From the IMG/VR virus record IMGVR_UViG_2740892230_000021: a stretch of 4,195 nt of DNA. One strand, written 5' to 3'. This document shows positions 576 through 4,091 of the stretch, piece after piece. Source of the DNA: a virus. Its lineage: Duplodnaviria > Heunggongvirae > Uroviricota > Caudoviricetes. Position 1 is the stretch's first letter, and each line of letters opens with the position of its first letter. Below the pieces are notes generated by a model. That model worked only from the letters and a program-made list of their open reading frames with translations, was not told the DNA's origin and made no database searches. A program made the position numbers and the translations under genes.

Positions 576-660
576 CCTGCTGCTCAGACGCCCATGCAGG
601 CGCACCGGATACGGTCAGACAAATGGCTGCGGACAAAATGGCGGCATAAAGTTTACGCAT
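576..660 (-). CDS. lom: Lom outer membrane protein, first 28 codons (copy 3, lambda-like signal peptide; the copy physically linked to the J 3' end in this block)
   Basis: ATG at 660-658 (minus). Translation MRKLYAAILSAAICLTVSGAPAWASEQQ is near-identical to the lambda Lom signal peptide as recalled. Truncated by the N run at 566-575. Confidence 0.85.
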
Positions 661-681: not shown

Positions 682-708
682 AATAAAAAAGGCACCATTT
701 CTGGTGCC
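682..708 (-). terminator. Putative intrinsic terminator downstream of J: 6-bp GC-rich stem (GGCACC / GGTGCC), 6-nt loop, then TTTTTTATT on the minus strand
   Basis: Plus-strand 691-708 ggcacc atttct ggtgcc is a perfect inverted repeat. On the minus strand it is followed by a T-tract (plus 682-690 aataaaaaa). It lies 20 nt after the J stop and about 20 nt before the lom ATG. Confidence 0.5.
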
Positions 709-727
709 CGTATCTGGGTTATAAAAT

Positions 728-1527
728 TCAGCTAATCGTGATGCCTGCAGTGGCTTTCTTCATCACAACAACCAGCAAATCGCTGATACTTGCTGTGGGA
801 TACCAGCCATTTACCAGCCATGCTGACACCGAAAACTCCAGTGTCATGTGACCGTGACCGGCAGGCATATCAATAACGCCACTGTAAATCAGCGTATTAT
901 CCAGCGCGGTACGGTTATAAATTTCAGCACCGTTTTTCCGCACTATCAGACGGCATGAGGAGTAAATATCAGTATGCTCTCTCTCATGCTTAGCGCCACT
1001 GAATGCCACAGCCGGAATAACAATTTGCCGGTCAAACGGCTGATCGTCATAAACCCTGACGGTAATGGTCCCTGATGGCCACCGCTCCGGTGCCCGGGAG
1101 TCACGGGGGAAAGCTTTGCCCACTGTTTTAACGAGATCGCCTTCAATCTGGTTCGCGGACAGTTTTCCCAGAACCCGGCAGTTCTCGTTAATCGTGACGT
1201 TGTTGAGCGTCCCGGAATTCGCATTCACGTTACCGCTGATATCAGCATTTCTTGCGGTCAGCCTGCCCTCCGGCGTCAGGGAAAACGTCGGGGGATTGGC
1301 GGACGAGGTGATACTCACCGCAAACAGCCGCTTCAGGAACACATCGTTCATGAACAACTGATTCCCCTGCGCCACAAATAACGGCGTGGTGTTGCCGTCC
1401 TCCGGGTTAATCATCGCAATACGGTCAGCCAGCAGCAGTATGTTGCTCAGGGGCTGGCCATCAGTATCCTCAATCCCCGCTCCAATACCGGCAACATAGG
1501 GTATGCCATTTTTTGTTTTCTGTACCT
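728..1527 (-). CDS. J: Host specificity / tail tip protein J, C-terminal about 266 codons including stop (divergent receptor-binding end)
   Basis: Stop TGA at 728-730 (minus). Translation ends ...[102 protein letters not shown]. Upstream [14 protein letters not shown] and [15 protein letters not shown] motifs match lambda J as recalled. Confidence 0.9.
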
Positions 1528-1537
1528 NNNNNNNNNN

Positions 1538-1693
<156 letters not shown>

Positions 1694-2148: not shown

Positions 2149-2578
2149 TTGCTGGCGTTATCTTCCGTCAGCTCAAAGTTTTCCAGCAGTTCCTTGCCGA
2201 GATGCGTTTTATTGATCAACCCTTTATAAAAATTCAGATAACCTTCCGCATCATCGCTCGCCCGACCAACGGCCTCCACAAATGCCGATTTACCAACGGT
2301 GTTCACGCTGCGGATATAAAAGTAATAATCATAACCCGGCTTAATATTGCTACTGGCGGCTATCCAGTACAGCGCCGTACCAAGATAACGCGCGCTGGTT
2401 TCAACCTGCCTGATATCGATAATCCGCTTTTCCGAGAACCAGAACTCAAACTGCACCGTCGGGTCATATACAGCCAGTTTCGGGACCGCTGTTATCTGAA
2501 AATACCCTGGTATCAGTTCAATAGTGACAGGCGCTGCCGGTGCCGCAATCCGGAACGATACCGACGCCGGATCGCCCT
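2149..2578 (-). CDS. J: J fragment (central region, variant B, overlapping variant A and extending toward the N-terminus)
   Basis: Translation [145 protein letters not shown] 2149-2430 is homologous to 1860-2138. Confidence 0.88.
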
Positions 2579-3101: not shown

Positions 3102-3111
3102 NNNNNNNNNN

Positions 3112-3467: not shown

Positions 3468-3477
3468 NNNNNNNNNN

Positions 3478-3659: not shown

Positions 3660-3669
3660 NNNNNNNNNN

Positions 3670-3766: not shown

Positions 3767-3776
3767 NNNNNNNNNN

Positions 3777-3853: not shown

Positions 3854-3863
3854 NNNNNNNNNN

Positions 3864-4081: not shown

Positions 4082-4091
4082 NNNNNNNNNN

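Follow-up and report, generated by a model that had tools for sequence, protein, structure and literature searches.

A lambdoid phage's choice of outer-membrane porin, and hence the range of strains it can infect, is set by the C-terminal domain of its tip attachment protein J. In the window, by which we mean the whole stretch of 4195 bases that was analysed, the minus strand of 728-1527 encodes a J C-terminus that departs strongly from that of lambda, and this raises two questions: which porin such an end would recognize, and whether it is a replacement grafted onto a lambda J gene or part of a different J. The choice of porin bears on the spread of Stx-converting and other prophages and on engineered lambda particles for DNA delivery in the gut, and the allele class concerned here has already been used to target O157:H7 through OmpC. 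The reading set out below, which we hold to be highly likely, is that the region is the C-terminal quarter of J from a lambdoid prophage of a non-lambda lineage, with a receptor-binding domain of the 1A2 type, a mechanism like that of lambda and A8, and most probably OmpC of the EDL933 type as its porin.

The window is a scaffold of alternative prophage alleles

The window is made up of 14 blocks of 77-952 bases, joined by runs of exactly 10 N, and the interval of interest lies wholly within one of them, block 576-1527. The joins, and the neighbouring block that matters for the argument, are as follows.

297-306, 566-575, 1528-1537, 1694-1703, 2139-2148, 2579-2588, 2777-2786, 3102-3111, 3468-3477, 3660-3669, 3767-3776, 3854-3863 and 4082-4091: runs of N
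1528-1537, no strand: contig join of 10 N, recognized from the block map, the overlapping J coordinates of its neighbours and the 34-nt exact overlaps of block ends
1538-1693, minus strand: separate contig with a lambda-like J allele for residues 869-919 (98% identical to that stretch of lambda J), derived from another prophage

Read on the minus strand, the blocks encode parts of lom and of J, the tail-tip gene. In lambda-J coordinates the parts of J overlap: blocks 1704-2138 and 2149-2578 correspond to J 751-895 and 702-843, and blocks 576-1527 and 1538-1693 to lambda J 867-1131 and 869-919. At six block ends exactly 34 nt are shared with another block, a pattern characteristic of de Bruijn-graph contigs (k = 35) that were broken at branch points. 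In the window, collapsed repeat contigs with alternative J and lom alleles from several lambdoid prophages have been joined into a scaffold and, given the overlapping J coordinates and the 34-nt overlaps, the adjacency of two blocks carries no linkage information. Neighbouring blocks of such a gapped multi-prophage scaffold cannot be compared as the structure of one gene. Open reading frames that span N gaps are artefacts; one of them, a 292-residue frame at 728-1606, was considered and rejected because it runs through an N gap.

All J blocks except 576-1527 are lambda-like, with 87-100% protein identity. The peptide of block 1538-1693 (…HYVAGLGLS…PMFVAQ) recurs as an identical stretch in the J protein of phage 2G7b. 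Block 2149-2578 (minus strand) contains a third, more diverged J allele, covering residues 702-843, with 87% protein identity to lambda and 65% to the J of Escherichia coli KY204 described below, and its neighbours are 92-100% identical to lambda; this block suggests that the source genome had at least three distinct J genes. The lom family is also present with three different 5′ ends on the minus strand, in blocks 1-296, 307-565 and 576-660 (MRKLCTVILSAVVWQVAAA..., MRKLCAVILSAVVWLVAAG... and MRKLYAAILSAAICLTVSG..., respectively), which implies a source genome with at least three lom-bearing prophages. Blocks 1-296 and 307-565 finish in the same 34 nt, and the ribosome-binding and start region (...AGAAAAGCGAGAGGTAATTATGCGTAAA) is common to all three.

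The interval encodes the end of J, followed by lom

Block 576-1527 contains the following features.

728-1525, minus strand: 3′ end of the lambda-type tip attachment (host specificity) gene J, the last 265 codons plus the TGA stop at 728-730
1250-1525, minus strand: backbone-specific part, fragment residues 1-92, covering the last part of the helical shaft and the greater part of the central straight fibre
731-1249, minus strand: apparently exchangeable receptor-specificity cassette of 173 residues (NADISG...AGITIS), matching the 1A2 graft piece
731-1123, minus strand: Ig-like receptor-binding domain, fragment residues 135-265, from the PF12421 match and an AlphaFold2 model
690-709, minus strand: terminator-like hairpin in the 67-nt J-lom spacer, an 8-bp stem with 5 G-C pairs (GGGCACCAGAAATGGTGCCT, then TTTTTTATT), from a pattern scan
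576-660, minus strand: first 28 codons of lom (MRKLYAAILSAAICLTVSGAPAWASEQQ), running from the ATG at 658-660 to position 576, where the contig ends and cuts the gene; from the ORF list and the block translation

The J fragment is cut on its 5′ side by the contig end at 1527, where two leftover bases (1526-1527) abut the N run. Its reading frame is intact, with neither stop nor frameshift across the 265 codons. Against lambda J 867-1131 it aligns with one gap and 140 of 265 residues identical (53%, E = 3e-87). Identity to lambda J is 55% over residues 867-919 (window 1366-1527), 76% over 920-985, 54% over 986-1039 and 34% over the last 93 residues (1040-1132). At the DNA level the match of the block to lambda shrinks to 233 nt at 76% (blastn). 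Two Pfam families cover most of the fragment: PF09327 (Phage_Tail_Tip) on residues 2-106, with 67.7 bits and E 1e-18 (cut-off 22), and PF12421 (Ig_GpJ_C) on residues 135-265, with 130.4 bits and E 6e-38 (cut-off 26.2), the latter over positions 1-135 of a 135-position profile. As in lambda, J is followed by lom, whose start lies 67 nt downstream in the same block; all close genomic matches have a gene annotated as Ail/Lom family next after J, and the order K/I-J-lom-stf is found at the closest genomic and phage matches. By its domain pair, its collinear homology, its position before lom and its fold (see below), the product is a lambda-type tip attachment protein J, the central tail fibre.

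These figures confirm what the sequence-only reading had observed, namely a J C-terminus homologous to that of lambda yet strongly diverged from it (53% over 265 residues, 34% over the last 93). The peptides it quoted are present on the minus strand of 728-1527, and the lambda motifs that it named (FDRQIV, IVDMPAGRGNVILTFTL and VMVIKKQALGISVV) agree with lambda J. It was also right that 1366-1527 is more diverged than the lambda-like segment 1538-1693, with 55% against 98% identity to lambda J. A 92-residue frame at 946-1224 (minus strand, alternative frame) is spurious.

The hairpin at 690-709 folds as RNA with -19.1 kcal/mol (z = -2.0) and lies within a stretch that is 100% identical in DNA to phage 2G7b. 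In the record of phage 21 a terminator is annotated after J, at the equivalent place.

We take the gene to be presumably complete and expressed in its source genome, although it could be truncated there, the N-terminal three quarters being absent from the window. One alternative is that the fragment derives from a decayed cryptic prophage, with an OmpC-type domain in a gene that no longer functions. The gene is seen only from residue 893 on, database products of the same region (P0027, P0035, P0038 and P0098) are frameshifted or fused, and the copies of the region in E. coli genomes (median 2, maximum 15) lie in many cases in defective prophages. Still, this alternative appears unlikely to us, as 265 codons run without stop or frameshift, the protein matches J from two complete, isolated phages, 2G7b and PhiR5_1, at 99-100% identity, and downstream neither the terminator-like hairpin nor the start of lom is damaged.

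The fragment belongs to a separate J lineage

The J fragment is collinear with residues 893-1157 of the 1157-residue J of E. coli KY204 and 99.2% identical to it, with 2 differences in 265 residues. Compared with lambda J, this 1157-residue protein is 67% identical overall and 40-88% per 50-residue bin, and it has a 28-residue insertion in the shaft. The backbone part at 1250-1525 is of the lineage of KY204, Stx2a_1447 and PhiR5_1 and not of lambda's, with 99% protein identity to KY204 J and 55-76% to lambda. By these comparisons the block fits a separate J lineage and not a lambda J with a replaced end.

The earlier argument that this J copy is a mosaic with its distal portion replaced does not hold. 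Segments 1366-1527 and 1538-1693, on whose difference it drew, cover the same J residues (867-919 and 869-919) and so are alleles of two genes, and the block is collinear at 99% with the 1157-residue J. A wider version would have a lambda J gene with its distal part replaced from about residue 867, one gene running from the lambda-like blocks into 576-1527. In its favour, every other J block in the window is lambda-like (87-100% protein identity), no block upstream of residue 893 has the 1157-residue backbone, and natural lambda-backbone genes with such a receptor-binding end exist, for example in 2G7b. We nonetheless consider it very improbable. Since 1538-1693 covers the same residues as 1366-1527, the two are not consecutive parts of one gene, and the 34-nt overlaps of block ends are typical of de Bruijn contigs, so that adjacency in the scaffold says nothing about linkage. 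The switch in 2G7b is placed near residue 960, whereas the window block is non-lambda already from 867 and of the KY204 type at 99%, and the closest full-length genes differ from lambda over their entire length. The two readings differ in the sequence expected past 1527: for a J of the separate lineage, which we prefer, this would be the KY204-type …QRVQKDTNDDLAALYMLK-VQKTKNG…, as opposed to the lambda-like …NAMWAVKIE.

The receptor-binding end behaves as an exchangeable cassette

Comparison with phage 2G7b at the DNA level delimits the unit that carries the receptor-binding end. From about 1250 to 664, a span that includes the J-lom spacer, window and 2G7b are 98-100% identical, against 52-88% on either side. 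The right boundary lies just inside lom, the lom genes of the two diverging after the first few codons. The J of 2G7b is lambda-like and switches to the 1A2-type end near residue 960 (‘NADISG’); over its N-terminal 982 residues it has been described as >97% identical to lambda (Andrews and Fields 2020). The receptor-binding end together with the J-lom spacer (664 to ~1250) thus behaves in these alignments as a recombination cassette exchangeable between two J backbones. Such exchange is already known behaviour of gene J.

The allele to which this end corresponds has been studied experimentally. Brödel et al. (Nature 2024; PMC11338833) took C-terminal parts of natural gpJ variants from prophages, joined them to residue 964 of lambda J and screened the fusions on a lamB-deleted recipient supplied with ompC variants from plasmids; the chimeras A8 and 1A2 were characterised. 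Upstream of residue 964 chimera 1A2 is lambda by construction, whereas the window has the backbone of the 1157-residue lineage; the two share the same length and the same C-terminal end. The published 1A2 gene is codon-recoded DNA given in a supplement, available to us as machine-read text with dropped and inserted bases, and 6 of its 168 positions are illegible. In a frameshift-aware protein-to-DNA alignment of the cassette (731-1249) with gpJ ‘1A2’, 157 of 162 legible residues are identical. Of the five mismatches two are clean, one is doubtful and two fall in a damaged stretch, and three of the five adjoin OCR damage. The clean differences are R in the window for K in 1A2 (HEREH/HEKEH) and G for N (LVNGW/LVNNW), and the doubtful one is F for L (AVAFSG/AVALSG). 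DNA strings of the window gave no match in the supplements of Brödel et al. because the 1A2 graft is codon-recoded.

The G/N difference falls in a predicted loop of the receptor-binding domain.

791-814, minus strand: predicted loop VNGWYPTA, from the secondary structure of the model and alignments

Its third residue is G in the window, 2G7b and P0009, N in 1A2, KY204 and Stx2a_1447, and D in P0027, P0035 and P0038, and this polymorphic site aligns to about lambda residue 1106. We take lambda residues 1104-1107, with OmpF-enabling mutations at 1104 and 1107, to be host-range hot spots in the same loop. The text of Andrews and Fields (2020) gives no numbered lambda host-range positions.

The two or three differences from 1A2 probably leave the receptor unchanged. 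One could suppose that the private residues, the glycine in LVN(G/N/D)W and the arginine in HEREH, tune the acceptance of OmpC variants, so that the allele would not be functionally equal to 1A2; we regard this as rather unlikely. If it were so, it would speak for an arms race in which prophage tips contend with the roughly 75 OmpC variants that occur naturally in E. coli, and for a host range unlike the published one.

Near-identity to 1A2 points to OmpC as the receptor

When placed on lambda J, the 1A2 end mediates DNA delivery into lamB-deleted cells through OmpC of the EDL933 type and not of the K-12 type (PMC11338833; bioRxiv 10.1101/2025.02.28.640725). According to the source data, delivery by 1A2 reached ~98% at an MOI of ~230 on K-12 cells with EDL933 OmpC, and 2-5% on K-12 OmpC (PMC11338833). 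Judged by its near-identity to this allele, the receptor-binding end in the window is for practical purposes the 1A2 allele, and its receptor would be OmpC. The receptor experiments concern 1A2 itself, and the window sequence is known by sequence comparison.

In the machine-read source sheet of Extended Data Fig. 2, the panel C numbers (EDL933 OmpC) for both 1A2 and A8 are the same as those of panel B (K-12 OmpC) (PMC11338833). This duplication is at odds with the text of that paper; the 8a sheets do fit it, with ~98% delivery by 1A2 on EDL933 OmpC (PMC11338833).

The sequence-only reading had argued that the divergence of this J end points to a receptor other than LamB. Its conclusion is supported by the published experiments on the near-identical 1A2, whereas its reasoning is unsafe when it stands alone, as phage 21 illustrates. 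LamB is the native receptor of phage 21, and a single substitution in J, I1025T, adds OmpC (PMC11336670); I1025 sits at the trimer axis, just before the domain (PMC11336670). The equivalent position in the window was found by position mapping.

1133-1135, minus strand: Leu codon equivalent to I1025 of phage 21 J

In the receptor-binding domain phage 21 is 49% identical to lambda and 82% to A8, and the window is 67% identical to phage 21, 42% to lambda and 63% to A8. The tip of phage 21 is equally far from that of lambda and still uses LamB, so divergence alone proves no change of receptor, and the assignment follows instead from near-identity to the tested allele 1A2. Among domains with demonstrated LamB binding, those of lambda (42%) and phage 21 (67%) fall well short of the 97-100% identity that the window shows to the 1A2 class. 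LamB use is possible within the broader clade, phage 21 being 67% identical in the domain.

That the domain in the window itself still uses LamB, with the OmpC use of 1A2 a property of the chimera or of a few private substitutions, could appeal to phage 21 (67% identical to the window and 49% to lambda, natively on LamB and one substitution away from OmpC) and to the 2-3 residues that separate the window from 1A2, but it strikes us as most improbable, since 1A2 came out of a screen on a lamB-deleted recipient and its activity tracked the OmpC variant supplied, the differences from 1A2 are conservative (R/K) or at a naturally polymorphic site of the allele class, and the window shares about 97-99% of its residues with 1A2 but no more than 67% with any LamB user.

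We also considered whether the divergence from lambda is concentrated in the predicted loops, and rejected this. It extends over the whole model, strands being 38% and loops 47% identical, in a comparison at the level of the domain, as the LamB contact residues are not listed in the main text of PMC11101478.

Predicted fold and mode of action

An AlphaFold2 model of the cassette (731-1249) was built with 13 natural homologues. Its pLDDT values are 87-97 over the Ig-like domain; confidence is low for the first 40 residues, a part that in the real protein is a trimeric β-prism. The best fold match to the model in the PDB is 9wcb (E 4.7e-18), followed by 9wca, 8xck and 8xcj, with E-values from 1e-15 to 5e-18 and TM-scores of about 0.7. 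Entry 9wcb is titled ‘Open state of A8 gpJ 713 central tail fiber with OmpC G17 from E. coli EDL933’, and 9wca is the closed state; 8xck is the lambda fibre alone and 8xcj the lambda fibre with LamB. A sequence search of the PDB likewise ranked A8 gpJ 713 (9wca/9wcb) above lambda J.

For lambda, Ge and Wang described how four bottom loops (L1-L4) of each Ig-like domain enter the porin lumen (PMC11101478). On binding, the three domains move apart at the bottom and come together at the top, the β-prism is compacted and twisted by new hydrogen bonds, the helical shaft flips and the tail tip opens (PMC11101478). The closed and the OmpC-bound open states of A8 point to the same mechanism with OmpC for that fibre. 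By analogy with lambda and A8, the allele in the window would probably open in the same way. Three copies of J would form a β-prism fibre capped by three Ig-like domains, the loops of which may insert into a trimeric outer-membrane porin. Binding of the porin would spread the three domains, and the movement would travel up the fibre and open the tail tip for ejection of the DNA. The porin would most probably be OmpC of the type found in E. coli O157:H7 EDL933 and many other strains, rather than LamB or the OmpC variant of K-12.

Occurrence and relatives

Similar DNA, covering >= 80% of the block, is present in 3263 of 5426 complete E. coli genomes with a best identity of 98.4%; an exact DNA match to the block was found in none of these 5426. 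Carrier genomes have two copies in the median and as many as 15, and the annotation is in every case J with an Ail/Lom protein after it. Another 210 phage records contain similar DNA, mostly long-tailed Stx1a- or Stx2a-converting phages and phages induced from natural isolates. In a large protein collection the domain has thousands of member sequences, nearly all from E. coli, and many of these are labelled ‘partial’ because a contig end cuts them, as it does the fragment in the window. The allele is thus known to be abundant and already characterised, and its OmpC receptor has been determined and exploited; one more copy from a draft genome adds nothing new to this.

Over the last 146 residues the fragment is 100% identical to phage 2G7b, 98-99% to PPompW prophages, Stx2a phages, PhiR5_1 and JLK-2012, about 63% to phage 21 and about 42% to lambda. 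Phage 2G7b (LR595866, genus Nesevirus), which the literature presents as a recent isolate, differs from the window in its lambda-like backbone upstream of ‘NADISG’. The J proteins (1157 residues) of the KY204 prophage, of phage PhiR5_1 and of the Stx2a-converting phage Stx2a_1447 are collinear with the fragment over all 265 residues and share the J-lom arrangement. The gpJ of A8 has the same fold, with 63% identity to the window in the receptor-binding domain and a 4-residue deletion and a 5-residue insertion in loops. Its receptor family is OmpC as well, but A8 accepts both K-12 and EDL933 OmpC whereas 1A2 accepts only EDL933 OmpC of those two (PMC11338833). Lambda J (P03749; PDB codes 8xcj, 8xck and 8iyk) and phage 21 J belong to the same family and agree in domain order, fold and position in the tail cluster; they natively use LamB (PMC11101478, PMC11336670), in contrast to the allele in the window with its most probable use of OmpC.

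Among phages induced from ECOR strains (records PV340545 for PhiR5_1, PV340566 for PhiR47_1, PV340547 and PV340555), those with a 1A2-type J end have E. coli C or ECOR13 as recorded host. For two whose J end is more lambda/434-like, with about 40% identity to the window, the host given is K-12 MG1655. The pattern fits the failure of 1A2 on K-12 OmpC, but it is a weak one as other lambda/434-like ends are listed on ECOR13.

Several related database sequences have irregular frames. P0027, P0035, P0038 and P0098 carry part of the domain in a shifted frame, the same as that of the spurious ORF at 946-1224, which suggests pseudogenes with frameshifts, or sequencing errors, in the other genomes concerned. 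In P0001 and P0084 the domain is fused to unrelated N-termini.
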